Positions 27,500 to 44,151 of a DNA stretch of 64,000 bases are shown piece after piece. Position numbers and translations under genes: made by a program. This DNA is from an uncultured bacterium (GTDB lineage Bacteria > Acidobacteriota > Thermoanaerobaculia > Multivoradales > JAHZIX01). The notes beneath the pieces were generated by a model. It saw only the letters and a program-made list of their open reading frames with translations, did no database searches and was not told the DNA's origin. How positions within the stretch are numbered: position 1 is the stretch's first letter; each line of letters opens with the position of its first letter. The stretch spans positions 1-64,000 of the forward strand of contig CBDUPA010000004.1 of NCBI GenBank assembly GCA_965368975.1. Direction: 5' to 3'.

Positions 27500-27522
27500 G
27501 CGTTTTCCTCTACGGGTGGGCC

Positions 27523-28740: not shown

Positions 28741-28919
28741 GACGAAATGTCCTTGCTGTCAGGGCCGTGTTGGGGTGGCGAGAGCAGCCGAAAGCGATGG
28801 ATCGGCGAGTCCTACCGCTGCCGAATCGAAGCTGGTCGAGATAGAGCGTGTCTTTCTCGCGGCTGGTCGATAGAATACGCGTTCTGCCTGGGGAATTCCT
28901 CCCCACGAATCATAGCACC

Positions 28920-29873
28920 GTGCCGACCCTGACTCTGCTGGGACCCCAGCGCCTTCACCCGATTGTCGCTACCACTTTGCGCCGCCTCCCCTCGCTGCGC
29001 GAGTCGGGTAGTGACAACGCCGTGGCCGTGGTGACGGCTGGTTGGCAAGAACGCGAGTCGGAGGTCGACGAGCTGCAGGAGCACGTGCACAGGCCGGTAT
29101 CGAATCTGCGCTTGTATGAGCGAGCCGAGCGCGTGATGCAGGACGGCGATCTGTTCCTGGCTCACCGCCAACGTCAGGATCGTCTCAAAGAGTTGCGTCA
29201 GCTCTACCAGCTGCGCCTGCGTCACGCGATGACCGCGGCGCGGGCGCTGATCTCGCGCGAGGGTGACGACGACTTGCTGGAGCCGGAGCGCGTGGAGGCC
29301 GTAGCGGCAGTGCGCCGCCTGGACCGGCACCACCTCGACCGCGTCCAGGAGGTGCACGACGAATTCCAGGACGCCTGGGGTGAGGCGCTGCTCGAAGCGA
29401 CGCGCGCCGACCGCGACGAGTTGCGCGCGATCCTCTCGGAGAGCGCCGCCTTGTGCATTGCCGGTGGTCACGTGACGGTGCTGCTCAACCGGCTGCGACT
29501 GTTTGGTCTCGGTGAGCTGCTGCGCGAGCTGCCCGATCTGCCGGTGATCGCTTGGTCCGCTGGTGCCATGGTGCTGACCTCGCGTGTCGTGCTGTTTCAC
29601 GACCGGCCACCGCAGGGCTTTGGCAACGCCGAGGTCTTCGAGCACGGTCTCGGCCTGGCTCCACGCGTGGTCGCACTGCCGCACGCCGCCAGCCGCTTGC
29701 GCCTGCAGGATCCGGTGCGTGTCTCTCTGCTGGCCCGGCGCTTGGCGCCTTCAAGGTGCATCGTGCTCGATGCCGGTAGCCGAGTGACCTGGAACGGCAA
29801 ACGCTGGCGCGCCGCGGCAGGCACACAGCGGCTCACCGAGGCCGGTACGCTCGATGAGGCCTTTGCACGATGA
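28920..29873 (+). CDS. Peptidase S51 (peptidase E/cyanophycinase-like, class I GATase fold)
   Basis: IAGGHV, nucleophile elbow AWSAGAM, VALPHA. GTG 28920 preferred. Confidence 0.7.
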   Translation: MPTLTLLGPQRLHPIVATTLRRLPSLRESGSDNAVAVVTAGWQERESEVDELQEHVHRPVSNLRLYERAERVMQDGDLFLAHRQRQDRLKELRQLYQLRLRHAMTAARALISREGDDDLLEPERVEAVAAVRRLDRHHLDRVQEVHDEFQDAWGEALLEATRADRDELRAILSESAALCIAGGHVTVLLNRLRLFGLGELLRELPDLPVIAWSAGAMVLTSRVVLFHDRPPQGFGNAEVFEHGLGLAPRVVALPHAASRLRLQDPVRVSLLARRLAPSRCIVLDAGSRVTWNGKRWRAAAGTQRLTEAGTLDEAFAR

Positions 29874-31015
29874 GCTTGGCGATCCACCGCTTGCTCGAAT
29901 CGGAGCCGGGGCGCGAGGGGTTCGACGCCTTCGTCGAGGCGCACGACTTCCCGCTCGCCGAGGGCAGCAACGTGACCTTCGTATACCGCGGCAAGGCCGA
30001 TCGCGTCGAGCTGCGGCACTGGATCTACGGCCTGCCATCGGCGCAGCCGTTCCAGCGCGCGTCGGTCTCGGGTGCCAACTCGGACTTCTGGTACTTGGTG
30101 ATGACGCTGCCGCCGAAGTCGCGCGTCGAGTACAAGATCGACGTCATCCGCGGTGACAACCACCACTGGATCCGCGATCCGCTGAATCCGCACCTGGCAC
30201 ACGATCCCTTCGGTGCCAATTCGGTATGCCACGGAGAGGGCTACAGCGTGCCGGCGTGGGCGCGGCTGGACCCCGAGTCCCGCGCGGGCGAGCTGCACAA
30301 ACTGGCGATCACCAGCGATGTCTTCGGTGAGCGCCGCGAGGTGCAGGTCTACTTGCCGGCGCGCTTCCGCCGCCGCCGTCGCTACCCGCTGCTGATCGTC
30401 CATGATGGCGCCGATTACTTGCGCTTCGCCAACCTCAAGGCGGTGCTCGACAACCTGATCCATCGACAGGAGGTGCGCGGTCTGATCGCGGTCTTGACGC
30501 ACTCCTCCGACCGCCTGCGCGAGTACGCCAACGATGGCCGGCATGCGCGTTTCCTGGCAGAAGAGGTCGTACCGCTGTTGCAGCGCCGCTTACCGCTGAT
30601 CGACGATCCCGATGCGCGCTGCCTGATGGGGGCCAGCTTCGGCGGTGTCGCCAGCTTCTCCACCGCCTGCCGCTACCCGGGCTTCTTCGGCCGCCTGTTG
30701 CTGCAGTCCGGTTCCTTTGCCTTTACCGACATCGGACCCAATCCGCGCGGTCCAGCGTTCGATCCGGTGGTGCGTTTCATCAACGAATATCGCCGCGAGC
30801 CCAAGAAGGTGAGCGAACGCGTGTTCCAGAGTTGCGGTGTCTACGAGTCGCTGATCTACGAGAACCGCTCGATGCTGCCCCTTCTCCAGTCCACAGGAAT
30901 GGAGGTACGCTATACGGAAGCCCGGGACGGTCACAACTGGGAGAATTGGCGCGACCGCTTGCGGGAAGGGCTGAGCTGGCTCTTTCCGGGACCGCTCTGG
31001 ATGGTTTACGAATAA
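29870..31015 (+). CDS. Fes/enterochelin-esterase-like alpha/beta hydrolase with N-terminal E-set (CBM48-like) domain
   Basis: EYKIDV...RDPLNP, VYLP, HDGADY, GASFGG, QSGSF, GHNWENW. Confidence 0.85.
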   Translation: MSLAIHRLLESEPGREGFDAFVEAHDFPLAEGSNVTFVYRGKADRVELRHWIYGLPSAQPFQRASVSGANSDFWYLVMTLPPKSRVEYKIDVIRGDNHHWIRDPLNPHLAHDPFGANSVCHGEGYSVPAWARLDPESRAGELHKLAITSDVFGERREVQVYLPARFRRRRRYPLLIVHDGADYLRFANLKAVLDNLIHRQEVRGLIAVLTHSSDRLREYANDGRHARFLAEEVVPLLQRRLPLIDDPDARCLMGASFGGVASFSTACRYPGFFGRLLLQSGSFAFTDIGPNPRGPAFDPVVRFINEYRREPKKVSERVFQSCGVYESLIYENRSMLPLLQSTGMEVRYTEARDGHNWENWRDRLREGLSWLFPGPLWMVYE

Positions 31016-31027
31016 GGAACAAACGTA

Positions 31028-32293
31028 ATGGCAGACATCACCCGTACCATCGGCCTGTCCCTGGGCGCCGACCTCTGTTGGCCCATCTGCTACGAGGAGA
31101 TCGTGCGCCGCCTGCAGGTGTCGGTGCCGCAGGGTGGGGACCGCGTCTCTCTCGACGTCGAACGAGTGACCATCGAGCCCTTTGATCTGCGCCAGGGCAA
31201 TAAATACTCCCTGGTCATCGACCGCCTCACGCACTGGTACCACACCAGCCGCGAGTGGATCAAAAAGTCGGTGATCATGGACGATCTCTACGTGCTGAAC
31301 AACCCGTGGACGCTGCAGTCGATGGAGAAGTGCACGACGTACGCTGCCATGATGCGGCTTGGCATGCCGGTGCCCGACACCTGGCTGCTGCCGCCCAAGT
31401 CCTACGAGCCGTCGCCCGACCTCAAGTCGACCCTGGAGCGCTATGCCAAGCTCTTCGACCTTGGCCAGCTGGGTCAGGAGCTGGGCTACCCGCTGTTCAT
31501 GAAACCGTACGACGGGGGCGCCTGGGTGGCGGTCGACCGTATCGAGGACGAGGCCAAGCTGCGCGAAACCTACGAGGCCAGCGGCAAGCGCGTCATGCAT
31601 CTGCAGGCCGCGGTACTGCCGTTCGACCTCTTCGTGCGCTGCGTCGGCGTCGGCCCGCAGGTGCGCATCGTCAAGTACGATCCGTCGGCGCCGCTGCACG
31701 ACCGCTACCAGATGGACCGCGATGTGGTCAACGCCGAGGACGCGCGCCTGCTCGAAGATATGACGTTGACCATCAACAGCTTCTTCGGCTGGGATTTCAA
31801 CTCCTGCGAGGCGCTGCGCAAGGATGGCGTCTACCACCCGATCGACTTCGCCAACGCCTGCCCCGACTCGCAGGTGACATCGCTTCACTACCACTTCCCC
31901 TGGCTGCTCGAGTCGATGGTGCGCTGGACGGTCTTCTGCACGGTCACCGGCAGGCCGATGCATCGCAACGTTGACTGGCAAGCCTTCTACGACGCGCACG
32001 ATCCGGAGCTGCCGCTGCGCGAGCAAGTCGCCGCCTACGGCAAGATCGCGCGGGCACGCTTCGACGTCGAGCGTTTCGAGGAGTTCAGCGCCGAACACCT
32101 GGGACACCTGGGCGAGGTGGTCGACGACTTCTTCAGCTCCGACGTGGCGCGGCAAGCCGTGCAGGCCAAGGTGGCAGCGCTCTATCCGGAGCACGAGGTC
32201 GAGCCGTTCACCGACCTCTTCTGGCAGCGCATCCAGGACTGGCGGTGCGAGGAAGGGCATTCCGCGGCAATCTCGAGCTCAGGAGACGAGTGA
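31028..32293 (+). CDS. ATP-grasp ligase (RimK/glutathione synthase-like)
   Basis: LNNPW...EK, MPVPDTWLLP, GYPLFMKPYDGGAW, FNSCE, IDFANACPD. Confidence 0.8.
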   Translation: MADITRTIGLSLGADLCWPICYEEIVRRLQVSVPQGGDRVSLDVERVTIEPFDLRQGNKYSLVIDRLTHWYHTSREWIKKSVIMDDLYVLNNPWTLQSMEKCTTYAAMMRLGMPVPDTWLLPPKSYEPSPDLKSTLERYAKLFDLGQLGQELGYPLFMKPYDGGAWVAVDRIEDEAKLRETYEASGKRVMHLQAAVLPFDLFVRCVGVGPQVRIVKYDPSAPLHDRYQMDRDVVNAEDARLLEDMTLTINSFFGWDFNSCEALRKDGVYHPIDFANACPDSQVTSLHYHFPWLLESMVRWTVFCTVTGRPMHRNVDWQAFYDAHDPELPLREQVAAYGKIARARFDVERFEEFSAEHLGHLGEVVDDFFSSDVARQAVQAKVAALYPEHEVEPFTDLFWQRIQDWRCEEGHSAAISSSGDE

Positions 32294-33432
32294 ACGGCGA
32301 CGTCTACCTGTGTCTCCACTGCTGGCGGTCGATGGCGGTACGCGACGCCGGCTATCGGTGTCCGCGCTGCGCCAGCGAACCGGATCCCTGGTCGCTGGAA
32401 GACGAAGCACGGCCGGTGCGCCACCTGCTCGACGACGGTCCTTGGGCACGTGTGCGTCGGGTCTTCGGGCGGCGAGTCTTCGGGAAGGCGGAGCAGGAGC
32501 CCCACTGCCCGCGTCACCCGGACGCGGCGCTGCACTTCTACTGCGCTTGCGGCGAGCGCCTGCTGCCCAGTCTGCGCGTCGATGCCGGACAGCTGAAGGC
32601 GGTCGGCCTCGCCGGGCCGCGGGCGAGCGGCAAGTCACACTTGCTGGTAGCGATGATCCACGCGCTGCAGCTGCGAGCCCGGGCGCGCGTCGCTCTCAAC
32701 GGATTGGGCACCACCGAGCCGCGCTTCCGTGAGCTGTCGCGCCGTATCCTGGAAGCGGGTGAGCGTCTGCCGGCGACCTCCGAGGCTGCCGACCCGCACC
32801 GGCACTTCGCCTGGGAAGTGCTCACCGAGCCAGGCGTGGACGTCAAGCGTCGCCGTGTGCTGGCGGTCTACGACCTGGCCGGCGAGTTCTGGGCGCGCCT
32901 GCACGAGGAGCCACCGGAGACCCTACGCCGCTACCTGGCGTCGCTCGGCTCGGTGGCGCTGCTGGTCGATGGTGCCGTGGCCGCCAGCGATCTGCGCATC
33001 CCCGCCCACGACGCTTGGAATCAGCGCCCCGAGCCGGGCGACCACGGTGCCAACGATCGCTTCCTGCTGCGCCAGCTGATCGACGGTTTCGGCCGCGGCC
33101 AGGCGCGTCGCTCGCGTCTTGCCATTGTGCTCACCAAGTCGGATCTGTTCTGGGATCACGCCGACTTCCGCGCTCTGTCGCCCGCCGCTTCCGAACTCGA
33201 ACCCGCTGCTTACCAGAGCTTGATCCGTGGCTTGCTCGAACGCTCCGGCCGTCGGCCGCTGCTGATGAGCGCCGAGCGACACTTCGGGGAGGTGCGCCTG
33301 TTCGCCACCTCCAGCCTCGGCTTCCGCCCCAGCGGTGAGCACGTGGAGGGGGACCAGCTGCGCTACCACATCGAGCCCCACGGCGTCGTCGAGCTACTGC
33401 TGTGGTTGCTGGAGCTGGAGCACCTGGCCTGA
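32290..33432 (+). CDS. Zn-ribbon plus TRAFAC-clade GTPase (double-GTPase-system type), GTPase 1
   Basis: CLHC...CPRC...CPRH...CAC, G1 GPRASGKS, G3 YDLAGE, G4 LTKSD, G5 TSSLG. GTG overlaps the upstream stop, with RBS AGGAG. Confidence 0.8.
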   Translation: MNGDVYLCLHCWRSMAVRDAGYRCPRCASEPDPWSLEDEARPVRHLLDDGPWARVRRVFGRRVFGKAEQEPHCPRHPDAALHFYCACGERLLPSLRVDAGQLKAVGLAGPRASGKSHLLVAMIHALQLRARARVALNGLGTTEPRFRELSRRILEAGERLPATSEAADPHRHFAWEVLTEPGVDVKRRRVLAVYDLAGEFWARLHEEPPETLRRYLASLGSVALLVDGAVAASDLRIPAHDAWNQRPEPGDHGANDRFLLRQLIDGFGRGQARRSRLAIVLTKSDLFWDHADFRALSPAASELEPAAYQSLIRGLLERSGRRPLLMSAERHFGEVRLFATSSLGFRPSGEHVEGDQLRYHIEPHGVVELLLWLLELEHLA

Positions 33433-33471
33433 CGGGTCTGTCATCGAGGTGGCCAGGAAAGAGGCATCGAG

Positions 33472-34374
33472 ATGAGCGTCAAGCACTTGCTGTATGGCAA
33501 CCTACCGAGCGAGGATCTGCCGGGTGACGGTCCAGACGATGCGCGTGGTTTCCGCGTGCTGCTGCGCAAGGGGTGGGGTGATGACGGTGCCCCGCTGGAA
33601 GCTACCCGGCTCGAAGCTGCCGAGACGTGGCTACGCGAGCTGCAGCCCGCCACAACCACTGAAGCCAGCAACGCAGAAGCCAGTCCCCCCAAGATCGGCT
33701 ACGCGGCCGCCGGTCTGCGGCTGGATGGTCGGTTGCACAGCTGCCTGGTGCGCGTCGATGGCCGCTTCGGTCGCGATGCCTTCGGGCGTCCCGAGGGTCG
33801 TTTGGCGCACCTGTTGGCCTGTGAGGTCGACGAAGAGCGCGATGCCTGGCTGCACATCGCCTCGCTGGTCGCCTTGATGCAGGCCAGTGAGCAGCTCACT
33901 GGCGGCGAGGAGGCACTTTCCATCGCACAGGTCCGGGCCCAACTCGACCGCCTGCCGCGTGTCGAGTGGGCGTCGCCCAACCTGCAGGCCCTGCGCGTCC
34001 TGGGGCCGCGCCTGCTCGAGCCCTTCCTGACGGCCGCAGCTCGGGTTCTGGACGGTGCGCTCTCCGGTCCGGTCGAGCTGTGCCTGCCGGCCCCGCTGCC
34101 GCGGAGCGTTCCCGAGGTGCTGGCCGCGCTGACGGGAGCCCTGCCTCCACGCCTGCGACTGGCCTTGCGCTGGGGCTGGAACCTGCAGCCCTGCAAGAGC
34201 GTAAACTTGAGGGTGACGACTCATCCTCTCGGGAGCCCAACCGAAGTTCCCCCGGCCTACGCACGGGCCTTGCTGCACCGCTTGCAAGCCGGCGACGATG
34301 GTGCGGTGCGAGCGGTGGTCGAGAACTGGCAGGTCCGATCCTGGAATCAACTCTCAGCGCTGGCGGAGACCTAG
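33472..34374 (+). CDS. Hypothetical protein, GAP1-N (GTPase-associated protein 1)-like
   Basis: HLLYG...GFRVL N-terminus, GRDAFGRPEG..AH, ALPPRLRLALRWGWN. Context between two GTPases. Family call is from recall. Confidence 0.5.
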   Translation: MSVKHLLYGNLPSEDLPGDGPDDARGFRVLLRKGWGDDGAPLEATRLEAAETWLRELQPATTTEASNAEASPPKIGYAAAGLRLDGRLHSCLVRVDGRFGRDAFGRPEGRLAHLLACEVDEERDAWLHIASLVALMQASEQLTGGEEALSIAQVRAQLDRLPRVEWASPNLQALRVLGPRLLEPFLTAAARVLDGALSGPVELCLPAPLPRSVPEVLAALTGALPPRLRLALRWGWNLQPCKSVNLRVTTHPLGSPTEVPPAYARALLHRLQAGDDGAVRAVVENWQVRSWNQLSALAET

Positions 34375-34791
34375 ATGAGCACTACCAAAGCCCCAACTCC
34401 CGGAGAATTGAACCGCCAACAGCAGAGCATGGAGAAGGAGTTGCGCGCCTACGTCGATGCCCAGCTCGATGGCGTCATGGGCAGCGCGCGCGTCGACCAG
34501 CGCAGGTACAGAGCCATCGCCGCCAGGGGGCGAGCCCCCAAGAGCGGGGCCTGGCTGCTGGTGCTGTTGCTCGTCTCGCTGTTTGCCATGGTTGCCTGGC
34601 TGGGTTGGGGAATCAGCGTGCTCAGTGGCCAAGTCGAAGAGTTGGGTGGACGGGTCGAGAGTCTGACGCTCGAAGTCGAACGCCTGCGCGGAGCGGAGCC
34701 GGAAGCGGTCACGCCGCCCGAGGGGGACGAAGAACCGGCCGCGGTGATCGAAGAGCCCGCCGACCCGGCCGTGGAGACGCCCTCGTCGTGA
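34375..34791 (+). CDS. Single-pass membrane protein with coiled coil and acidic Pro-rich tail
   Basis: TM WLLVLLLVSLFAMVAWLGWGI, heptads VEELGGRVESLTLEVERL. Abuts the upstream stop (TAGATG). Confidence 0.65.
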   Translation: MSTTKAPTPGELNRQQQSMEKELRAYVDAQLDGVMGSARVDQRRYRAIAARGRAPKSGAWLLVLLLVSLFAMVAWLGWGISVLSGQVEELGGRVESLTLEVERLRGAEPEAVTPPEGDEEPAAVIEEPADPAVETPSS

Positions 34792-37394
34792 CTCCCCCTG
34801 CCGGTGAGGGCGCGCCGCACGTCGTCGGTCAGGCTGTCGTCACGGATCCGGGCGGCGACTCGGCCGGTGGCTACGTCCTGGTGGCCGCGTCTCCGAGTGT
34901 TCGGGCCGATGAAGGGCACTTTCTCAAGCGCTGCTCGGGTATCAGCGAGCACTTGCACCGCAGCGAGCGTCCCGGACCGTACTTCACCTTCCTGCCGCTC
35001 CCCAAGAGTCCGGAGTCTAGGGCTGGCCGGGGCAACCACGCACTGATCCGCCGTTTCGTCGCCGGCCGGCGGCGCGGCGTGCACCGCGTCGTGGTGCACA
35101 TGCTGGTGGTGCCGGAACCTCTGCTCGACGCGCTGGACTGGGATGCCACCCTGCTCAGCACGCACTGTCGCTACTCGCCCGTCGGTGCCGCGGCCAGTGA
35201 CACGGGCAGTGACACGGGCAGTGACACGACTGGCGAAGCTGCTGGCGAACGGTTGTCCGACCTGGGCAAGGCCGCAGCGGCCGATCGTCTGCAAGAGTTG
35301 CCGGACTTGCGGTGCTCGCTGCCGGAGGCCGCGGCGGGCGCCGTTCCGGCAGCGCGCGTGGAAGCACAGCGTCAGCGAATCAGGTACCTACAGCGTGAGT
35401 GGGGTGAGCCCGCGCTCTTGGCCACCCTGGGCTGGACCTTCCACACGCTGCTCACCGGTCAGGGTGCGCTGTTGCCGCAGGCGCTGCCCTACCAGCAACT
35501 GCTCACCCTCGCCGCCGCCAGCTTGCCGCGCCGCGACCGTCGCCGGCTGGCCTGGAGCACGCACTTTGCCGCCGGTGTCCGTGCGGACTTCCGGCTGCTC
35601 AACGCGCCGCAACCCGAGGAGGCCCGACGCATGCAGGCGGAGCCGTCCAGCTGGCAGTGCCGTCCGCGCGAGCTCCCAGAAGTCGACGCCACGTCGACGA
35701 AGCTGGGACCGGCGCTCGCGTGGGTGGTGCTGCACGAGCCGGACCTGCTGGAGGCCTTCGAAGCGGGCTGGCGGGACTGGTCGCCGAGTCTGCTCTACGA
35801 CGCCGGTCGCGCACAGCGGTTTCTCGCCTGGCTGCGAGGGGATGCCCGCGGGGCGCGCGAGGGCTTCGCGTCGCTCGACGAGTTGGGAGCCTTCCTGCGT
35901 GCCTGCCGCGACGGCTGGGGCGGTACCGAAACGGAGCGCGACCCTTGGTTGAGTGGCACTGTCCTGCTGCGCGCCACCCTTCGCACTGCCTTGGTGCTCG
36001 CGGCCGGCACGGCACCACGCTGGGATGGATTGCTGCGCGGAACTCAGGAGCAAGTTGACGCTGCCGGCTGGGGTGACACGCTGACGCCGGTGTCAATCGC
36101 TGGTGCTTTGCTCGATACCTTCCAGCAAGCCGCGGATTCGGGTCGTTCGGCGGAGTTGATGGAGCAAGCCATCGTTCCGATGCTCGGGGCGGCACCGGAG
36201 AGGGTTCGGGAGCTGGCTAGTGTGCTCGCCTCTCTGCGCGGCGCAGCCATGTCGGCAACAGGTCGTGGGGAACTGTACCTGGTTGAGCTGTACCAGGAGC
36301 TGGCGGATTTGATCGTCTCGGTACTCGAACTGCAGCCGGAACAAGCCACGGCCGCGCTCGCGGCGCTGTTGCAAGCCGACGGTGTTCGTGTCCTGGACTG
36401 GCATAGCGAATTGGACGCATGGCTCCAGGTGCTGGCCCGTCTCGGCCGTCCCGAGCTGGCGTCGCGGTTGGCTGGTTGCGCGTGGCTGCGCTTGCGCGAA
36501 GAGGTGGGCTTGCGAGAAGAGGCGGGTTTGCCAGAGGAAGCTTGGGACTCCTTTCCCAAGGCCGCACTGCGCAGTCTCGACGTGCTGCAGGCGGAGTCCT
36601 TGCGCAGTGTCCTCGACGCCTGGCGTCCGCGCCTGGAACAGCTCGGCGGCAAGCCGGGCGAGGTGGCGCTCGTCAAGGCGTTGCGCGCGGCCGCGGGGCA
36701 GCTCGACCCCCGGATCGACGCCAAGGCGCAGTTCGATTTCGAGCTGGAGATCCAGCGCCTGCGCGTGGTGCGGGGCGAGCGCAGCACCGGCTCGGCGCTA
36801 CGCCGTCTCGACGACTTGGCCGCCGATCTGAGTGCTCGCCGCGGTCATGCCTTTGCCCTGCCGGGCGACGAGCTGCTATGTCTCTTTCCCCGCGCACCGG
36901 TCCCGTGCTGTGAGGCCCTGCTGCAGGCTTTACTCAGCGGCGCCACGCGCCCGTCCGTCAAGTGGAGCCTGCAGGGGCAGTGGCCGAAGGTGCTGGCACG
37001 CCTGGAGCGCGGGGTGCTCGAAGACGGCGCTGCGGCGCCGGACCTGGGCTGGCTGCCGGTGCCCGCCAAGCTGGCTGGGCGAGGTCGTGTCTTCCTGACC
37101 ACCAGCCGCTGGTTGGGGCGCAACTGGGACATCGATCCGGTCAAGGCCGCCGACTATCTTTCTTTCGCCCTCCAGCGTCGAGAGTTCGCCGCCGTCCAGG
37201 CCTTCCTGGACGCCAGTCGGCGTCACCTCCGCGACGGCAGTGTCGACGATGGTTGGCTGCGCCACCTGGTCGAAGTCGAGCCCAACCAGCTGCCGCAGCA
37301 GCTGCAGATCGTGGTCGGCCAGCACGGAGCCGCAGCCCTGCGCTTCGGCCGTCACGTGGACCGCTTGATCGAGCTGGGTAATACTGGCGCCTGA
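34788..37394 (+). CDS. Large GAP1-like protein (GAP1-N2/M-like N-terminus plus long alpha-helical region)
   Basis: GTG 34788 overlaps the upstream stop. GQAVVT...GGYVLVAASPSV, VVHMLVVP, SLPRRDRRRLAWST. The ORF-track extension to 33966 overlaps real genes. Confidence 0.6.
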   Translation: MTPPAGEGAPHVVGQAVVTDPGGDSAGGYVLVAASPSVRADEGHFLKRCSGISEHLHRSERPGPYFTFLPLPKSPESRAGRGNHALIRRFVAGRRRGVHRVVVHMLVVPEPLLDALDWDATLLSTHCRYSPVGAAASDTGSDTGSDTTGEAAGERLSDLGKAAAADRLQELPDLRCSLPEAAAGAVPAARVEAQRQRIRYLQREWGEPALLATLGWTFHTLLTGQGALLPQALPYQQLLTLAAASLPRRDRRRLAWSTHFAAGVRADFRLLNAPQPEEARRMQAEPSSWQCRPRELPEVDATSTKLGPALAWVVLHEPDLLEAFEAGWRDWSPSLLYDAGRAQRFLAWLRGDARGAREGFASLDELGAFLRACRDGWGGTETERDPWLSGTVLLRATLRTALVLAAGTAPRWDGLLRGTQEQVDAAGWGDTLTPVSIAGALLDTFQQAADSGRSAELMEQAIVPMLGAAPERVRELASVLASLRGAAMSATGRGELYLVELYQELADLIVSVLELQPEQATAALAALLQADGVRVLDWHSELDAWLQVLARLGRPELASRLAGCAWLRLREEVGLREEAGLPEEAWDSFPKAALRSLDVLQAESLRSVLDAWRPRLEQLGGKPGEVALVKALRAAAGQLDPRIDAKAQFDFELEIQRLRVVRGERSTGSALRRLDDLAADLSARRGHAFALPGDELLCLFPRAPVPCCEALLQALLSGATRPSVKWSLQGQWPKVLARLERGVLEDGAAAPDLGWLPVPAKLAGRGRVFLTTSRWLGRNWDIDPVKAADYLSFALQRREFAAVQAFLDASRRHLRDGSVDDGWLRHLVEVEPNQLPQQLQIVVGQHGAAALRFGRHVDRLIELGNTGA
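35195..35228. repeat. 12-bp tandem repeat (CAGTGACACGGG x2.8), encoding SDTG
   Basis: Read directly from the sequence. Confidence 0.85.
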
Positions 37395-37425
37395 CGATGA
37401 GCAACCTCGTATTGAGCTACTCCGC

Positions 37426-38748
37426 ATGAGTTACCGCTGCCCCTCCTGCCAGAGCGTGCTCGATGACGCCTTCTGCCCTGACTGCAGTGTGTTGGCGGAC
37501 GAGATTCGCGAAGAGTCTGCCGCGCCGGCATCCGTCGCCCTGCCGCCTTTGCCCGAGCCACCATCGCCCCAATCGCTCCCCGGCTCGCCTTCCGAGCCGC
37601 CCCCCGTCGCCGCCACCAAGTCCGAAGGCACGGTCAGGCTGCCGGATTGGGGCGACGAAGTCGAGTCGCTCGGGCCCCGCCGGCCGTCCACTCGGCACGA
37701 GGCGGAGGTCAGCGTCGACGAGCTGGTGCAGCGTAGCCAGACCCAGGAGACGCCGACCCCGCGCCAGCGCCGCGCCGAACTGGAGCGTCTACAACTCGAC
37801 GGTCGCGACCTGGTCGAGCAAGACCTGGCCGATGGCTTCGAGCTGTTCCTGATCGCCGGCGTCGGCGGCAGCGGCAAGACCGAGTTGCTGGCAGCGCTGA
37901 GCAAGCTCGACGCCGGTTTCCTGCAGGACTTCGACCGCGACGAGCTGGGCCGGGTCACGCGCACCACCGTGCGATCCATCCATAGCCGTCACGTACGCGC
38001 GCCCGGCCGCAAGCTCAGTTTTATTGATGCCCCGGGTGAGCTCTTCGTCGACCTCTATCCCCTGCGCGACGCGGACGGCTATGGCGACAGCTACGGCGGG
38101 GGGCAGATCGAGCTGTGGCCGCAGCTGATCGCGCAGCGCTTCCGCGGCATGATCCTGGTCATCGACCTGGAGAAGCTGTGGTCGCTCGACGGACCGGCCG
38201 AGTGGCGCCAGCAGATCGAGATCGCTGCCTGGGTGCTGGAGGTCATGCGCTGGCTGCAGCACGATGGTCACTATCCGAGCGGCAGCTCGCACCAGCTGCA
38301 CCAGTACATCGATCGCCAGGTGCGCGGCATGAAGAAGAAGCTCAGCGTGCCGGTGCAGGTCGTGTTCACCAAGGCGGATGTGGTCAAGGGCACGCCGATC
38401 CCCAACTACCAGCGGCGGCTGTATCCCGTGGGTGAAGACCCCGTGCTCTTCGCCTTCCACTGCCTGCCCAAGCTGCACGACGCGCTGGTCGAACACGTGG
38501 CGCACTTTCGCTACGACTTCACTCACGCCATCGTCACCGACGGCACTACCGGCGCCGCGACCCAGCGTCCACCCTGCGGCGTGCGCTTGTCCATGGACTG
38601 GTTGCTCGATGCTGCCTGGGCACGCCAGCACTGGTGGCAGGTCACCACGGGTGGCTGGCTGCGCTGGCAGCGGCTTGTCGATCTCCTGACCGGCAAGAGG
38701 GAGCGCTGGAAGCGATTGCCGGACCCGGAACCTTTGGACTCGCCCTGA
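37426..38748 (+). CDS. Zn-ribbon plus TRAFAC-clade GTPase, GTPase 2
   Basis: CPSC...CPDC, Pro-rich linker, G1 GVGGSGKT, G2 RTT, G3 IDAPGE, G4 FTKAD, Trp/Arg-rich amphipathic C-terminus. Confidence 0.8.
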   Translation: MSYRCPSCQSVLDDAFCPDCSVLADEIREESAAPASVALPPLPEPPSPQSLPGSPSEPPPVAATKSEGTVRLPDWGDEVESLGPRRPSTRHEAEVSVDELVQRSQTQETPTPRQRRAELERLQLDGRDLVEQDLADGFELFLIAGVGGSGKTELLAALSKLDAGFLQDFDRDELGRVTRTTVRSIHSRHVRAPGRKLSFIDAPGELFVDLYPLRDADGYGDSYGGGQIELWPQLIAQRFRGMILVIDLEKLWSLDGPAEWRQQIEIAAWVLEVMRWLQHDGHYPSGSSHQLHQYIDRQVRGMKKKLSVPVQVVFTKADVVKGTPIPNYQRRLYPVGEDPVLFAFHCLPKLHDALVEHVAHFRYDFTHAIVTDGTTGAATQRPPCGVRLSMDWLLDAAWARQHWWQVTTGGWLRWQRLVDLLTGKRERWKRLPDPEPLDSP

Positions 38749-38778
38749 GACGACCTTGCTCTGAGAACTGGATCGAGC

Positions 38779-40527
38779 ATGCGCATCCAAATCAAACGCC
38801 CCGACGTCCCCGTAGCTCGTCTGTTGGCCTTCGTGCTACCCCTGGTGGCTGGGCTGATGGTGTTGTACGCCATGCTGCGGGTCCTGCCACATGCCGGCGA
38901 TCCCGCCGCTCTGCTGCGAGGTGCCCGTCTGCTGGCAGAGCGCACGCCGGTCGTCGAGGTGGGTTGGATCGAGGAAGCTTTCCCGCCGCGCTACCTCACC
39001 TCGCCGCCCGGGGCTCTGCCGTGCGCCAGCCGCACCAACGCACCCCGCCGCACGCGTGCCGCCGTCGAGACAGCATTGGTCGAGGCGCGTCGAGGCGAGA
39101 CGCAAGTCGCCATGGACCGCTTGCAGCGTCTGGGAGACCGTCACTGGCTGCCGCCGCTGGTCCTCGGTCTACTGCTGCTGGACTCGCAGACTGAGGCTGC
39201 TCAGGCTGAGTTCGCTCAGACAGAGAACGTCTCGCGTAGTCAGCTGGTGCTGGTGCGCGCCGTCGAACGTCAGGGTATCCGGCCGAGCGACAACGAGCAG
39301 ACCTTGCGCGCACAGATCTACCTGATGCAGGCCACCGCCTTCCTGCAGATCGAGCACGACCGAGCGGACGACAACCTGTTCACCTATGTCAAGAACCCGA
39401 TCGGTTTCACCAAGCTGCTGGTGCAGCGGGGCCGCTTGGCCGACGTCCAGTCGATGCCCACCTGGAGCCAGCTGGAGATTGCACCGCCCGGCTGTCCGCC
39501 GGGAACCCGGGGAGCGCTGTCAACCTACGATCTCTACAACAACCTGCTGGTGGCCTATCTGAAGTCGCCCGACTATGAAGAGACACAGAGCGAGCGAGAC
39601 GACGAGTTCAAGCGCACCTATCGAGACTCGCCGGTGTCCAACCCGCTGCTGATGGTGCTGCGCGAGGTGCAGCAAGATCTGACCGGCGGCGAGAACTGGG
39701 TGTGGGCGATCTCCAACGCCGAACGCATTCTGCGCTGGAATCCGGCGTCACCCAACGACGCCCGCCTGAGCTACAACCTGGCTGCGTTGCTCGATTCCGC
39801 CCTGCCTCACACCCCGGATGCCGCCCGCGCGTCCCTGCTACAGCGGCGCGACGATTTGCACCAGGCGGCGTTGGACTTGCGGGATCAACTCCAGGCTGGC
39901 GAACGTGCCGAACTCGTGGTCGGCCTGCTGCGACTCGACCTGCTGCGCGCCGCTCGTCAAAGTCGCCAGCCGGATGCTCTTTTGCTCGACGCCGCGACGC
40001 TCACGTCGGCCCAGCAGCGGACCGCTGACCAACTCCTGGCCGCACTGGCACGGCGCATCCATCCCGAGCAGCTGGCCTCGACCTTCACGCAGGCAGGTCG
40101 CACCGATGCCAGCCACACGCAAGTCGGCGTGGAGCTCGGCGAGCGCGCCACCGACTGGTTGGCCGCCCTCCGCTGGGACACGGCATCGACCCTCGGCCAG
40201 ATCGGCCTCGACCGGCGCGAAGAACTCGACTCGGCGCAGCTCTTGACCTACGCCCAGACCGGCTATGCCCTGCTCGATGGTCAGACCGCGCCGCCCGCAC
40301 TGGCCGAGCTGCGCGGCCTGGTCGACGATTGGCGTCGCTGGCTTCTGCCCGACTCCGTCCGCCTCGCCTGGCAGATTCTCGCCACCGTGCTGGCGCTGGC
40401 CGTCTTCCTGCTGCTGTGGCGCGAACTGCACTGGATCGCAGTGCTGCTGCGTCGCCGCAAGGCGCTGCTGACGTCCTTCTACCGCCTGGAAGCGGACGCT
40501 CAGCGGCGAGCGGCGGGACGCGGCTAG
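38779..40527 (+). CDS. Membrane protein: N-terminal and C-terminal TM helices flanking a roughly 480-aa helical (TPR-like) domain
   Basis: TM LLAFVLPLVAGLMVLYAML and TM LAWQILATVLALAVFLLLW, basic C-tail, LSYNLAALL. Confidence 0.65.
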   Translation: MRIQIKRPDVPVARLLAFVLPLVAGLMVLYAMLRVLPHAGDPAALLRGARLLAERTPVVEVGWIEEAFPPRYLTSPPGALPCASRTNAPRRTRAAVETALVEARRGETQVAMDRLQRLGDRHWLPPLVLGLLLLDSQTEAAQAEFAQTENVSRSQLVLVRAVERQGIRPSDNEQTLRAQIYLMQATAFLQIEHDRADDNLFTYVKNPIGFTKLLVQRGRLADVQSMPTWSQLEIAPPGCPPGTRGALSTYDLYNNLLVAYLKSPDYEETQSERDDEFKRTYRDSPVSNPLLMVLREVQQDLTGGENWVWAISNAERILRWNPASPNDARLSYNLAALLDSALPHTPDAARASLLQRRDDLHQAALDLRDQLQAGERAELVVGLLRLDLLRAARQSRQPDALLLDAATLTSAQQRTADQLLAALARRIHPEQLASTFTQAGRTDASHTQVGVELGERATDWLAALRWDTASTLGQIGLDRREELDSAQLLTYAQTGYALLDGQTAPPALAELRGLVDDWRRWLLPDSVRLAWQILATVLALAVFLLLWRELHWIAVLLRRRKALLTSFYRLEADAQRRAAGRG

Positions 40528-41834
40528 GTTCGCAGCAACGACATCCCCTGTCCCGCCCAGCCCGGAAAGACGACGGAATCCTCCGCGACGCCGAGGTGGT
40601 GGGTCGCGCCGCTGAAGACCGCTCTGAAGTCCGTGGTTACTGGTAGGTCTCGCCCTTCGTAAAGGGCGCTCTCGTCGAGTCCGGGGAAATGACCGTGGAC
40701 CTTGCCGCCGTCGACCTGGTTGCCGAGCACGAAGAGGCAGGAGCCGTGGCCGTGGTCGGTGCCGCCGGAGCCGTTCTCGCGCACGGTGCGGCCGAACTCG
40801 GTCATGGTCAGCACCAGCACGTCATCCTGGTGCGTACCGAGGTCGGTCCAGAAGGCGGCCACGGAGTCGGCGAGATCGCGGGCACGGCGGGCGAAGGAGC
40901 CGGTGGAGGTGCCTTGCTGCACATGGGTGTCCCAGCCGCCGGATTCGGCGAAGGCGATCTCGAGGCCGAGGTCGGCCTTGATCAGCATGGCGATCTGGCG
41001 CAGGGAGTTGCCCAGTGGACTGCGCGGATAGCGCGCGCCGTGGGCCGGCCGGTAGCTACGCAGGTTGGCCTGTTCGAGCGCACCGACGGCGTCGAAGGTG
41101 TCGTCGGCGGTGTCGCGTAGCAGGTCCTGGGAGGTCTGCTGGTAGAGAGCTTCGAAGCCCTGGCCGGCTGCCTGGGTGGCACGCCGTGCACCCGGCAAGT
41201 CGACGCGGAAGTCGGCCAGATTGGTGACCGCGATGGCGGGCTCGGCGCCGTAGAGGGAGCGTGGCAGCGCGGAGGTCATGGCGACCGAACGGAAGGGCGT
41301 GGCGTCGTGACCGAGCAGGCCGCTGACGCGGTTGAGCCAGCCGCTGGGGGTGCCCTTGCGACCGGGGGTGGCGGTTTCCATGTAGTCCTGGGCGTCGAAG
41401 TGGGAGCGCGTGGTGTCCGGCGAGCCGACGGCATGGATGATGCCCAGACGTTCGTCCTGCCACAGCGGCAGCAGAGGCTCGAAGGCGGGGTGCAAACCGA
41501 AGTCGACACCGAGGTCGAGGAGAGCCTCTTCACCAGCACCGCGGCCGGCGTTCATGGCCAGGCGTGGACGGTAGCGCTGCAGAGCGCTCAGCTCGGTCAG
41601 CGGCGGTACGGCCATCAGGCCATCCATGGCGCCACGTTGGAAGATGGTGACCAGGACCTTGCGACGTTTGTAGGCGCCTGGCTCGGGGGCGGCGAGGGCG
41701 GTGCGATGCAGGAACGAGGGCCCGAGGCCGAGGCTGCAGAGCGCGAGGCCTCCGGCTTTGAGGAAGATGCGGCGGTCGAGGTGCGTCTCCCGGGATCGAG
41801 TTGGGGATGACGTCTTGCCGTGGTGGTCACACAT
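40524..41834 (-). CDS. DUF1501 family protein (Tat-exported)
   Basis: DRRIFLK Tat motif, QRGAMDGL, GLHP, TRSHFDAQ, GGWDTH, TEFGRT, GTDHG. RBS AAGGAG before ATG 41834. Confidence 0.9.
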   Translation of the reverse strand: MCDHHGKTSSPTRSRETHLDRRIFLKAGGLALCSLGLGPSFLHRTALAAPEPGAYKRRKVLVTIFQRGAMDGLMAVPPLTELSALQRYRPRLAMNAGRGAGEEALLDLGVDFGLHPAFEPLLPLWQDERLGIIHAVGSPDTTRSHFDAQDYMETATPGRKGTPSGWLNRVSGLLGHDATPFRSVAMTSALPRSLYGAEPAIAVTNLADFRVDLPGARRATQAAGQGFEALYQQTSQDLLRDTADDTFDAVGALEQANLRSYRPAHGARYPRSPLGNSLRQIAMLIKADLGLEIAFAESGGWDTHVQQGTSTGSFARRARDLADSVAAFWTDLGTHQDDVLVLTMTEFGRTVRENGSGGTDHGHGSCLFVLGNQVDGGKVHGHFPGLDESALYEGRDLPVTTDFRAVFSGATHHLGVAEDSVVFPGWAGQGMSLLRT

Positions 41835-41859
41835 GTGGGGGCTCCTTCGGAGGAAGATG

Positions 41860-43911
41860 TTACCGTCTTTGAAACTCGGGGGATCCCAGGATGACGCCGA
41901 TGACTTGTTCCAGAGGGGTGGGGGGAGCGTAGCTCTGGGAGGCAAGGCGACCCGAGGAACCGAAGAGAAGGTTGTCGAGTTCCGGGTCGACGGCGTAAGG
42001 ATCGTCCGTGCTCGGCTCGGGTGCGGCTCCGCTCACTTTGTCGGCGAGGGCCGGATCCTGGACCACCGGCGTCAGCAGTGCGATGGTCCCCTCAGCGTCG
42101 CGCTCGGGCATCAACAGCGGCACATAGGTCTCGAGCGCGGCCTGCATCGACTCGGGCTCTCGGTGCTCGCCAGCCGGGGACGCGGCCAGGGCTGACAGGT
42201 CTAGACGCACGCCGTCGACGCGACCAGCGGCCAACTGCAGGCCGAAGTTCATGCGATTGAGCAGCGAGCCGGTGTTGACCCAGGCGTCGGCGGTGTCTGG
42301 GTAGCCGGTGGGGGCCTGGTAGGCATAGAGCGGTTGGCCCATGCGTGACACCCATTCGAGGGTGCCTTGCGGGTGCGACACATCGGCGTCGAGAGCGCGC
42401 AGCGTCGAGGCGGCGAGCTCGAGCGGTGACTTGATCTTGCTGCCGCGGGCCTGCCAGAACTCGGGAGACCGGACCAGCGTGCGCAGGACGGTCGGTAGGT
42501 CGCCGCGGGAGCGCTCGAAGGTCGAGGCAAGGCGTTCGACCAATGACGGGGAGGGCTGATCCGTGACGAAGCGGACGGCGAGCTTGTGCGCCAGGTGACG
42601 GCCGGTAGAGGCATGATCGGCCAGCAGGTCGAGCACGTCTTCGCCGTCTTCGATACCGCGCCCGGCCGGCAGGGTGGTGCCCAGGACGCGCTTGGCGGCG
42701 GCGTCGTGGGCGTCGGCGCGGAAGAGGAACAGGCCGTCGACATGGAAGCCGGCGCGCGCCGCCCTGTGTGGATTCTCGCTCAGGCGCTCCAGGGCACGCT
42801 GCTGGCTGCCATCGCGGCCGATGCGGGGTGGCAGCACGCTCCAGCCGGTAAAGGCCCGAGCTACCTCGATCACATCGTCCTGGCTGTAGCCGCCGTCGAC
42901 GCCGAGGGTGTGCAGTTCGAGCAGCTCGCGTGCATAGTTTTCGTTCAAGCCATCGCTGCGTCGGCGTTGCCGCGCTTCGTCGTCGCCCTCGCGTGAGCCG
43001 CGTCGCGGGGCTTGGCTGCCACCAAAGCTCCCCGGTCGCTGTCCACCGAAGCCGCGCTGCCCGCCGAAGCTACCTCCGCGTCCGCCCCGGCCTCGACGCA
43101 TCTGGCGCGGGTCGAAGGTCGTCGGACGACCCTCTTCAGCGGTCGAGCGAGCGTTGTCCAGGTAGACCAGCATTGCCGGGTGGCGAGCGGTGGCGCCGAG
43201 CAGGTCGCGGAAAGTGCCGAGCACGTGCGGGCGAATGGCGTCACGCTCGTAACTCAACACCAGCGGTCGAGCGAGATTGTTGGTGATCGAAACGTTGAAA
43301 TGGTTGAACCAAAAGTCCGTCAGCACCTCGCGTAGCTGATTCTCCGCGTAGACGGCACGTCCGAGCTTCTGTGCCATCGTCTCGGCCAGCAGTTCACGCT
43401 GCGGCCGGATGCCCTGCTGCTCGGCCCAGCGTCGCACCTGCTCGAACATCGCCCGTCGATTCCGGTCGCTGCCGTTACTGTCACCTGGTTGAAGATCGGC
43501 GTCGATGACGCCCTCGCGGCGCGCACGGTTCAGGACCAGACCCGGATTCGGATAGGTCTCGACAATCTTTTCCAGCGGTAGGTCCAGTGTGCCGAGTGGC
43601 TCGAGCTTCTCGCGCAAGCGCGGCTCCGGCAGACGTGCGGTCAGCTGCGTTTCGAACCAGGTCTCGAGGCCCAGTTCGAGCACGCGGTCGACATCCCCTG
43701 GCCTGGGTCCATAGGTCCAGCGGTCGAGCAGGTGAGCGGCGGCCTGGCGTTCGCTGAGACCAGCGTCGCGCCAGGGGAAAGCGCCTGAATCCGTGCGTTC
43801 TTGCCGAGCCGTGTTCGTGTCGGTGGCCGCAGATTCGATCGGCGTGCTGAGCACCGCCAAGACGCTGACCAGGAGGGTCGAGAGAGCGAGCAGAGTTTTC
43901 AGTCGGGGCAT
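41860..43911 (-). CDS. DUF1800 family protein
   Basis: HLLDRWTYG, FWFNHFNV, HPAMLVYLDN, NENYARELLELHTLG, ARAFTGW, SPEFQRR. Confidence 0.92.
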   Translation of the reverse strand: MPRLKTLLALSTLLVSVLAVLSTPIESAATDTNTARQERTDSGAFPWRDAGLSERQAAAHLLDRWTYGPRPGDVDRVLELGLETWFETQLTARLPEPRLREKLEPLGTLDLPLEKIVETYPNPGLVLNRARREGVIDADLQPGDSNGSDRNRRAMFEQVRRWAEQQGIRPQRELLAETMAQKLGRAVYAENQLREVLTDFWFNHFNVSITNNLARPLVLSYERDAIRPHVLGTFRDLLGATARHPAMLVYLDNARSTAEEGRPTTFDPRQMRRGRGGRGGSFGGQRGFGGQRPGSFGGSQAPRRGSREGDDEARQRRRSDGLNENYARELLELHTLGVDGGYSQDDVIEVARAFTGWSVLPPRIGRDGSQQRALERLSENPHRAARAGFHVDGLFLFRADAHDAAAKRVLGTTLPAGRGIEDGEDVLDLLADHASTGRHLAHKLAVRFVTDQPSPSLVERLASTFERSRGDLPTVLRTLVRSPEFWQARGSKIKSPLELAASTLRALDADVSHPQGTLEWVSRMGQPLYAYQAPTGYPDTADAWVNTGSLLNRMNFGLQLAAGRVDGVRLDLSALAASPAGEHREPESMQAALETYVPLLMPERDAEGTIALLTPVVQDPALADKVSGAAPEPSTDDPYAVDPELDNLLFGSSGRLASQSYAPPTPLEQVIGVILGSPEFQRR

Positions 43912-44151
43912 GGGGTTCCTCCAGGTCGGTTCGTGGCACATGCAGGGAGTAACCCGCGAGGACATCGGATCCTGCGCTCGCTGTGAGCAAGTGAGTTGAT
44001 CCCAGACAAGAAGAAGCTCTTCTGCTATACTAGAATTCTATCTATTAAGCTGAGGCCGATTCTCTGTGAGATTTGGCGCCGGTTCCCTTGAGTTGAGGCT
44101 GAGTCACTGCGAACAGCTTGCTCCGACAGCGCGAGAGGAGAACGAAGGGTC

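Follow-up and report, generated by a model that had tools for sequence, protein, structure and literature searches.

A six-gene DO-GTPase/GAP1-like operon in an uncultured Acidobacteriota bacterium: possible switch half of an envelope machine

DO-GTPases and their GAP1 partners have been predicted to form conflict systems with variable effectors (Kaur, Burroughs, Iyer, Aravind, eLife 2020; PMC7159879), and the portion of that study considered here reports TM components in 67% of DO-GTPase systems and describes two subtypes, GAP1-N1 and GAP1-N2. GTPases have also been linked to wall synthesis. The Ras-like GTPase module MglA/MglB acts with the Rod complex during spore germination in Myxococcus xanthus, and, as far as outlined in the preprint (bioRxiv 10.1101/818641), provides a precedent for a small GTPase and its regulator steering the site of a wall-synthesis complex. 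Unlike the genes treated here, MglA/MglB belongs to an unrelated GTPase family, is not encoded in a synthase operon and has neither Zn ribbons nor GAP1.

Here, we analysed a window of 64,000 nucleotides from an uncultured Acidobacteriota bacterium, in which ORF inspection showed six co-oriented, tightly packed genes on the + strand at 32290-40527. We lean towards the view that these genes are the switch half of a rare Acidobacteriota GTPase-controlled envelope/cell-wall machine, whose dedicated synthase was lost from this genome or was never present; we regard a classical conflict system as the less probable reading. The genes are as follows.

GT1, 32290..33432, + strand, 380 aa: DO-GTPase with two N-terminal Zn-ribbon-like Cys clusters
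U300, 33472..34374, + strand, 300 aa: predicted short GAP1-like protein with a GAP1-M-like core, soluble here
TM1, 34375..34791, + strand, 138 aa: single-pass membrane protein by hydropathy
GAP, 34788..37394, + strand, 868 aa: long GAP1-like protein
GT2, 37426..38748, + strand, 440 aa: second, more divergent predicted DO-GTPase paralogue
TM2, 38779..40527, + strand, 582 aa: 2-TM protein by hydropathy, with a loop of ~495 aa

The operon and its two GTPases

From GT1 to TM2 the successive junctions are a 39-nt gap, 0 nt, a 4-nt overlap, a 31-nt gap and a 30-nt gap, and the TAG stop of U300 is followed immediately, in the same frame, by the ATG of TM1. These coordinates bear out the initial annotation, which had described six co-oriented genes with overlaps or gaps below 40 nt. 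The description as a six-gene unit needs one qualification, since three more co-oriented genes lie directly upstream of GT1 and belong to a separate conserved operon; they code for an S51 peptidase, an esterase and a protein of 421 aa, the last with a stop codon that overlaps the start of GT1 by 4 nt. Judged by sequence conservation, the six ORFs are real genes that did not arise by chance. By tblastn, five of the proteins have relatives encoded in matching order at loci of other genomes; TM1 had no tblastn match in related loci, and its counterparts were recognised by position, single TM and a common N-terminal motif. Hydropathy placed one TM in TM1 (residues 58-76), two in TM2 (residues 15-33 and 529-547) and no hydrophobic TM segment in GT1, U300, GAP or GT2, in agreement with the 1-TM and 2-TM proteins noted earlier.

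Both sets of GTPase motifs and the Zn ribbons quoted in the initial annotation are present. GT1 carries CLHC/CPRC, the P-loop GPRASGKS, the Walker B motif DLAGE and TKSD, with Cys clusters at C8/C11/C24/C27 and C73/H76/C85/C87, and its Cys/His and G-motif columns are invariant in the alignment of GT1 orthologues. In the comparison with the DO-GTPase models of Pfam (PF19993 / PF19975) that had been proposed for this locus, GT1 matched DO-GTPase2 with 33.7 bits, above the cutoff of 27, and the model was matched by 10/10 GT1 orthologues at E<=0.01. GT2 carries CPSC/CPDC, GVGGSGKT, DAPGE and TKAD, and has one N-terminal Zn ribbon (CxxC...CxxC) followed by a long Pro-rich linker. Its score against DO-GTPase2 (13.5 bits, E 0.058) is below the cutoff, and 3/10 GT2 orthologues matched the model at E<=0.1. 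At the profile level, GT2 is a distant paralogue of GT1, to whose family it is tied by hhalign only (96.8%, E 2.7e-10, 215 columns). The G, K, D, G and E of the GTPase motifs are invariant in both ortholog alignments; the P-loop and the Walker B glutamate (DxxGE) expected of DO-GTPases are found in GT1 as well as in GT2, and the operon holds two paralogous copies with N-terminal zinc ribbon(s).

The GAP1-like and membrane proteins

Against the GAP1 models of Pfam, GAP itself matched GAP1-M alone, below the cutoff (E 0.028). Its family is small and divergent, with 64 representatives in 1.84 billion proteins, and at E<=0.01 its members matched GAP1-M (6/44), GAP1-N2 (5/44) and GAP1-N1 (2/44), weak matches that lean towards GAP1-N2/GAP1-M; GAP1-C had no Pfam match. 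The 868-aa protein had been described as helical, and its AF2 model (pLDDT 87.1) agrees for the C-terminal helical solenoid, whereas the N-terminal ~300 residues are alpha/beta. When the N-terminal 306 residues were modelled separately (AF2, pLDDT 83.3), Foldseek found no PDB match at E<=0.001; the top three matches of this model were the DENN-domain Rab GEFs DENND1A/1B (DENND1A/1B-Rab35; PDB 6ekk, 3tw8), a weak predicted likeness with E 4e-3 to 1.2e-2, TM 0.32-0.35 and 9-12% identity.

U300, previously listed as a 300-aa unknown, appears by profile comparison to be a second, short GAP1-like protein. It has no Pfam match at E<=1; its nearest ESM Atlas clusters are ~300-aa GAP1-N2/GAP1-M proteins (score 0.95, with recognition below the tool's mark), and hhalign aligned its family with the GAP family over 74 columns across the GAP1-M region (96.1%, E 3.1e-9). 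A GAP1-M-like core therefore appears to be common to GAP and U300. The two GAP1 genes adjoin the GTPase genes, U300 directly after GT1 and GAP directly before GT2, and this is likewise the case in all relatives examined. Several relatives carry U300 and the TM1 protein as one fused ORF of 577-663 aa; the other TM1 counterparts have ~295-324 aa. The window TM1 has an outer tail of ~60 aa, much shorter than in relatives, and its basic N-flank suggests an N-in orientation under the positive-inside rule.

The only two cysteines of TM2, C82 and C239, are invariant among its relatives, and its C-terminal tail (TSFYRLE) is conserved as well. Its ~495-aa loop is probably periplasmic, a placement drawn only from the two TMs and the invariant Cys pair, and its ESM Atlas matches are to TPR-like clusters with scores of 0.82 or less, which we treat as a lead only. 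Pfam and PADLOC searches found no conventional effector within the six genes, in line with the initial annotation, and none of the six proteins had a Pfam match to GASH, FNIII, EAD, GAAD, SLATT or an enzymatic effector.

The eight-gene cassette of related genomes

The co-occurrence of the six genes, put forward earlier as a check on the locus, was recovered by tblastn together with an additional pair downstream. The full cassette runs GT1, short GAP1, 1-TM, long GAP1, GT2, 2-TM, X1 (SEDS-like) and X2 (class-B-PBP-like), and the same gene order was found in six phylum-level genomes, further class-level genomes, 18 genome loci and 24 metagenome loci; all named records with the cassette are Acidobacteriota. 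The giant SEDS-like (RodA/FtsW-like) X1 is directly 3' of the 2-TM gene in 18/18 genome loci and 22/24 metagenome loci; in the other two metagenome loci, the contig runs out no more than ~250 nt past TM2. On every contig that extends far enough, X1 is followed by the class-B-PBP-like X2. These partners do not change over about 40 loci.

SEDS proteins and class B PBPs form synthase pairs, such as RodA-PBP2, FtsW-FtsI and SpoVE-SpoVD. X1 and X2 resemble these pairs in that they are adjacent, translationally coupled and apparently distant homologues, but each is about 950-1000 aa long with large extra domains, and they score far below the normal range of the families. PF01098 matched at the X1 position in 3/4 cassette genomes searched, one match being above the cutoff (29.7 bits), and hhalign related X1 to canonical SEDS (92.7%, E 4.4e-7). 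An acidic residue is aligned to the D of the SEDS TDF motif, which we take to be the catalytic Asp, in 28/30 X1 proteins (D in 22). The X1 profile found nothing in the PDB (best E 0.65), and single X1 and X2 proteins matched Pfam weakly (E 0.006-0.065). For the X2 profile, 11/13 PDB matches were class-B PBPs (best E 2.9e-4), and the active-site motifs are conserved (SxxK 26/26, KTG 26/26, SxN pattern 22/26). We therefore call X1 SEDS-like and X2 bPBP-like on what are weak sequence signals.

In relatives, this pair is additional to the two canonical SEDS genes of each genome, whereas the genome of the window, which is 99.3% complete, has no third pair: no homologue or fragment of X1 or X2 was found anywhere in it, and, apart from a 12-bit match, PF01098 found nothing but the two canonical SEDS genes. 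For this reason the synthase pair was invisible to the initial annotation. A convergent DUF1501 gene overlaps the TM2 stop, and among the loci examined only the window has something other than X1 after TM2. In a quick tree of TM2, the window is a single long-branched leaf (1.45) inside a set of 11 rows, and the other ten all carry X1 except for one contig that ends too early; provided that the tree is not rooted on the branch of the window itself, parsimony consequently favours loss of X1.

The distribution of the cassette is sporadic (6/401 genomes of the phylum and 2/41 relatives); in the sister genera examined, the operon that precedes GT1 here is present but the cassette is not. Such a pattern is also expected of a mobile conflict system.

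Relative to GAP1-N2-type systems, as set out in the relevant part of PMC7159879, the locus is alike in several respects: its TRAFAC GTPases are paralogous and have the Walker-B glutamate, one of them carries two Zn ribbons at its N terminus, each is encoded beside a GAP1-like gene, and there are TM-containing partners with a predicted near-membrane role. It is unlike them in that there is no FNIII-repeat protein (no fn3 match) and there are no tubulin, HSP70 or kinase themes; the second GTPase of that type has four N-terminal and one C-terminal TM helix and GT2 has none, two GAP1-like proteins are present, one short and one long, and a SEDS-like/bPBP-like partner is constant in the window's relatives. 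With GAP1-N1-type systems, in the corresponding part of the same source, the locus shares GAP1 and a pair of DO-GTPase genes, of which one has a Zn ribbon at the N terminus; the weak GAP1-N1 matches within the GAP family are a further likeness. It differs from them in that a GASH protein, an EAD/GAAD-coupled effector (Pfam E<=1) and calcineurin, TIR, PNPase and SLATT domains are all absent. The earlier assignment to the DO-GTPase/GAP1 kind thus stands on the Pfam score of GT1, the paralogy of GT2 and the GAP1 matches of the GAP family, but in its sequences the cassette is without the defining features of either published subtype. The main text of PMC7159879 does not mention SEDS/PBP coupling (the words FtsW, RodA, SEDS, penicillin and transpeptidase are absent from it), and Acidobacteriota, the host phylum of the cassette, does not appear in its section 29 listing.

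A possible GTPase switch at the envelope

In the arrangement that we propose, two zinc-ribbon DO-GTPases would each be paired with a GAP1-type regulator, whose weakly DENN/longin-like fold may serve as an exchange factor or platform, and both pairs would be tethered at the inner membrane through TM1 and TM2. Tethering is suggested by the fusion of U300 to the TM1 protein in relatives. The nucleotide state would be passed via TM2 to switch or position the dedicated wall synthase pair. The membrane proteins had been put forward as a possible effector, which they may be, but TM2 looks more like a hinge to the synthase pair, since TM2-X1-X2 occurs in one metagenome locus (L106) whose 10 kb upstream contain neither GTPase nor GAP genes, and the window shows the converse. 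The weak SEDS/PBP signals, the weak DENN likeness, the sporadic distribution and the reduced form of the window's version count against this explanation.

The locus could instead be a self-contained, NTP-dependent anti-phage or anti-invader system, with the membrane proteins as sensor and effector, for example by membrane disruption after a GTPase switch. This is what the prediction made for these families by Kaur et al. and the frequency of TM components in them would lead one to expect (PMC7159879), and it agrees with the rarity and patchiness of the cassette and with its position directly after a conserved operon. We nevertheless consider it unlikely. No PADLOC-DB 2.0 model matches the six proteins (best E 0.015, P-loop-only), the effector domains searched for are missing, and TM2, with its large conserved loop, invariant Cys pair and TPR-like features, is unlike a small pore-forming module. 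Because the SEDS-like/bPBP-like partners are constant at about 40 loci, whereas effectors vary in the conflict systems described in that source, and PADLOC gave no matches, the cassette looks unlike a variable-effector system.

It is also improbable, in our estimation, that the operon is a non-functional remnant, its six genes left decaying or idle once the SEDS/PBP pair had been deleted from an acquired eight-gene cassette. The unique absence of X1 after TM2 and the placement of TM2 in the tree fit such a history, as do the short TM1 tail and a GAP that falls ~150 aa short of its relatives of ~1000 aa. On the other side, the six reading frames are all open, free of frameshifts and, when compared with orthologues, complete at either end, the G1/G3/G4 motifs, Zn-ribbon cysteines and invariant TM2 residues are all retained, no X1 or X2 fragments are left in the genome, and the converse partial form, TM2-X1-X2, suggests that the modules can stand alone. 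Taken by itself, the reduced form of the window (short TM1 tail, shorter GAP, no X1/X2) fits decay and an orphan switch equally well.

Within our preferred explanation, a GTPase-controlled envelope machine, the module of this genome, which has no synthase pair to act on, may be a still-intact leftover or may work on a different target in the envelope, for example the housekeeping RodA/FtsW synthases. Since the six frames and both GTPase motif sets are intact, a working orphan switch is the favoured, sequence-based reading for this Acidobacteriota genome.

The six-gene operon and its GTPases

The span from GT1 to TM2 (32290-40527) is filled by six plus-strand open reading frames, and the proposal of the initial annotation that they form an operon holds: these genes are a real operon, whose order is kept in related loci. 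Every GTPase motif that it had quoted was found in the window proteins, and hydropathy agreed with the two membrane components that it described, giving one transmembrane segment (TM) in TM1 and two in TM2.

Genes of the operon and its flanks (coordinates, strand, description)
within 26015-32293, minus, PepD-type dipeptidase (TIGR01893, 487 bits)
within 26015-32293, minus, ATP-grasp ligase
within 26015-32293, plus, S51 peptidase
within 26015-32293, plus, enterochelin-esterase-like esterase
within 26015-32293, plus, 421-aa protein, no family match
32290-33432, plus, GT1, putative DO-GTPase, 380 aa
33472-34374, plus, U300, short GAP1-like protein, 300 aa
34375-34791, plus, TM1, 138 aa, one TM by hydropathy
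34788-37394, plus, GAP, long GAP1-like protein, 868 aa
37426-38748, plus, GT2, putative DO-GTPase, 440 aa
38779-40527, plus, TM2, 582 aa, two TMs by hydropathy
within 40524-45735, minus, DUF1501/DUF1800 gene pair
within 40524-45735, plus, tyrosinase (PF00264, E 2e-35) with DUF7868 and a polyphenol-oxidase middle domain

The junctions from GT1 to TM2 measure, in order, +39, 0, -4, +31 and +30 nt, and the TAG stop of U300 is followed immediately, in the same frame, by the ATG of TM1. On the left, the 421-aa gene, which is preceded on the same strand by the esterase and S51 peptidase genes, shares 4 nt at its stop with the start of GT1; on the right, the TM2 stop has a 4-nt overlap with a convergent DUF1501 gene, beyond whose DUF1800 partner the tyrosinase follows. 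An Rfam scan of the window found no RNA family, and a promoter and terminator scan, uninformative for the phylum Acidobacteriota, returned nothing promoter-like and a single terminator-like site, which was on the wrong strand. In a search of sequencing runs the matches listed were one DNA run, sharing 0.06 of the sequence words, with no RNA run among them.

GT1 was matched by the Pfam model DO-GTPase2 at 33.7 bits (cutoff 27) and by DO-GTPase1 at 21.5 bits, and all 10 aligned GT1 orthologues matched DO-GTPase2 at E<=0.01, so that its annotation as a DO-GTPase stands on its own. The assignment of GT2 stands at the level of the family only: by itself GT2 fell below the Pfam threshold (E 0.058) and 3 of 10 orthologues matched at E<=0.1, but the GT2 family aligned with the GT1 family across 215 columns at 96.8% probability. 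The predicted complex of GT1 (residues 95-380) with U300 scored 0.00 against a mark of 0.32, which is evidence neither way.

GAP1-like proteins of the operon

The GAP1 label given earlier to this operon found little in Pfam itself, where GAP matched GAP1-M alone and weakly (E 0.028) and U300 had no match. When 1.84 billion representatives were scanned exhaustively with HMMER, 64 relatives of GAP, sharing the N-terminal ~400 residues, were recovered at E<=1e-3, whereas a simpler homologue search, too insensitive for this family, returned GAP itself and one relative. Among 44 aligned members, 6 matched GAP1-M, 5 GAP1-N2 and 2 GAP1-N1 at E<=0.01, which makes the GAP family a small, divergent clade of GAP1. 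The nearest ESM Atlas clusters to U300 are GAP1-N2/GAP1-M proteins of ~300 aa (score 0.95, a recognition below the mark of the tool), and the U300 family aligned with the GAP1-M region of the GAP family at 96.1% (E 3.1e-9). As both proteins are GAP1-like and lie beside GT1 and GT2, there are two GTPase/GAP1 pairs in the operon.

In several relatives a single ORF encodes U300 joined to the 1-TM protein, and such predicted fusions link the short GAP1 with the membrane. One related locus (L086, 4068-8732) has a single open frame of 1554 aa in which a U300-like protein, the 1-TM protein and the long GAP1 are apparently fused, and a 1554-aa representative (P0060) is likewise among the GAP-family relatives from the exhaustive scan; the L086 frame may reflect a genuine fusion or else an artefact of assembly or frame. 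A free-standing ~300-aa paralogue of the N-terminal module of GAP was also seen in another genome, G061 (L014, 5360-6259, minus strand), with 35% identity to residues 9-272 of the window GAP, its gene divergent and immediately upstream of the cassette.

In the AF2 model of GAP (44-row alignment, pLDDT 87.1), the N-terminal ~300 residues are predicted to take an alpha/beta fold, after which comes a helical solenoid. Searched against the PDB, the whole model retrieved only generic helical-repeat proteins (TM <= 0.21). A separate model of residues 1-306 (pLDDT 83.3) had nothing in the PDB at E<=0.001, and its best three matches, all weak (E 4e-3 to 1.2e-2, TM 0.32-0.35), were DENND1A/1B DENN GEF domains from structures that include Rab35.

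Related cassettes and their SEDS-like and PBP-like genes

GAP was matched in 2 of 41 related genomes and in 6 of 401 genomes of the phylum, the window's own genome (G000) being counted. A gene-neighbourhood survey showed that the six genes co-occur in other genomes in the same order: six fetched related loci keep GT1, U300, 1-TM, GAP, GT2 and TM2 at 26-38% identity, and in all six the operon is extended by two large genes, X1 (a giant SEDS-like gene) and X2 (class-B-PBP-like). With the TM2 alignment as query, species-representative genomes yielded 18 loci, each of them labelled Acidobacteriota and most of them Thermoanaerobaculia; X1 directly follows TM2 in every one, and X2 is next in all 14 with DNA reaching far enough. 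Among 24 metagenome loci X1 follows TM2 in 22, and in the remaining two the contigs end within ~250 nt of TM2; the genome and metagenome counts are not independent, because some loci are identical across collections. Downstream of X2 in another genome (L019, 7265-9646, G109) lie a 213-aa gene and one for a PMT_2 (ArnT-like) glycosyltransferase (E 1.7e-7).

SEDS-bPBP pairs are core bacterial wall polymerases and major drug targets. The C-terminal part of X1 matched Pfam FtsW/RodA/SpoVE (PF01098) at the X1 position in three of the four cassette genomes searched, one match being above the cutoff (29.7 bits), and the X1 profile aligned with canonical SEDS at 92.7% (E 4.4e-7); against the PDB it had nothing meaningful (best E 0.65). 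The matches of the X2 profile in the PDB were class-B PBPs in 11 of 13 cases (best E 2.9e-4). Among orthologues selected by homology, an acidic residue is aligned with the D of the conserved SEDS TDF motif, which we take to be catalytic, in 28 of 30 X1 proteins, and X2 proteins have SxxK and KTG in 26 of 26 and an SxN pattern in 22 of 26. Each cassette genome has two more, canonical, SEDS genes besides X1.

In the reverse search, 48 of 401 genomes of the class (one of the 48 flagged unpublished) had a match to the X2 profile at E<=1e-3; only 13 had full-length orthologues, and G000 had none. That search also turned up open frames of ~1750 aa (L052-L063) in many Thermoanaerobaculia genomes. They form a second family, whose match to X2 is confined to its PBP-like core (E about 1e-11 to 1e-13), and which is possibly a giant fusion related to the X1/X2 pair.

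The window locus and the proposed switch

The window locus is an incomplete, switch-only form of the cassette. No homologue of X1 or X2 was found anywhere in G000 (99.3% complete), where PF01098 matched two canonical SEDS genes and otherwise gave one 12-bit match. The upstream S51 peptidase, esterase and 421-aa genes were considered as a missing effector and rejected: no related cassette locus contains them, and they form their own conserved operon in all four fetched same-family genomes (53-73% identity). They belong to a conserved, peptide-metabolism-like cluster (26015-32293) syntenic in those genomes, whose fetched regions hold no cassette genes. GAP was found in none of five same-family genomes, and thus the cassette lies beside the S51-esterase-421-aa operon only in the window's lineage, either by gain here or by loss elsewhere.

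In a quick tree of TM2 the window is a long branch within an 11-row set. The other rows bear X1, apart from a single contig that breaks off too early to show it. That X1 and X2 were lost in the window would be the simpler reading, short of proof. The converse partial cassette is found on a metagenome contig (L106, 10001-17506), which has TM2, X1 and X2 only; the 10 kb upstream of its TM2 hold opposite-strand genes with no GTPase or GAP1 match. TM2 is thus found with either half, which suggests that it may be a hinge between switch and synthase.

The sequences show directly which genes are present and in what order, which motifs are conserved and which remote homologies exist; the mechanism is inferred. 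The two DO-GTPases and their GAP1-type regulators would form a membrane-tethered switch, and TM2, with its two TMs, an invariant Cys pair in the loop and a conserved tail, may relay the state of this switch to the dedicated SEDS-bPBP-like synthase; its matches to TPR-like ESM Atlas clusters, at 0.82 or less, are a lead only. In the window genome, where the synthase is missing, the switch would act on another envelope target or be idle, and the intact frames and motifs weakly favour the former.

It is possible that the cassette is instead a conflict system, as was predicted for DO-GTPase/GAP1 systems by Kaur et al. (eLife 2020; PMC7159879), but its partners are constant across related loci and no defence model was matched, PADLOC giving nothing meaningful for the six proteins; NCBIfam likewise had nothing near any cutoff for them. 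The main text of that paper does not contain the words FtsW, RodA, SEDS, penicillin or transpeptidase, and its supplementary tables may list such loci. Two other papers naming DO-GTPase/GAP1 or double-GTPase terms cite the family in passing only, and nothing on the cassette was found among the listed papers that combine GTPases and gene neighbourhood with SEDS and class B PBPs. The operon is a variant of an already known, experimentally uncharacterised DO-GTPase/GAP1 kind, and the variant itself is new.

A broader joint reading, which we hold tentatively and consider rather doubtful as a whole, is that DO-GTPase/GAP1 modules are a prokaryotic switch of DENN-like regulators and small GTPases over envelope machines, not immune sensors, which in Acidobacteriota would drive a dedicated third SEDS-bPBP wall synthase through the 2-TM adaptor and in the window would have been connected instead to the housekeeping wall synthases or to some other target in the envelope. 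If so, the six-gene module of the window and the TM2-X1-X2 form would show switch and synthase to be separable modules.

Taken alone, the window locus is an incomplete family member, and its value lies in the wall-synthase coupling of its relatives and in the natural separation of modules. As the natural switch-only form, it defines together with the synthase-only L106 which parts pair up, a clean design for reconstitution. To our knowledge, the regulators of SEDS-bPBP pairs are cytoskeletal and divisome proteins. Joined in a conserved operon with two Ras-like GTPases and a pair of DENN-like partners, a divergent SEDS-bPBP pair would amount to a new switching mode for wall synthesis, and such coupling would challenge the blanket label of conflict system on DO-GTPase/GAP1 systems.
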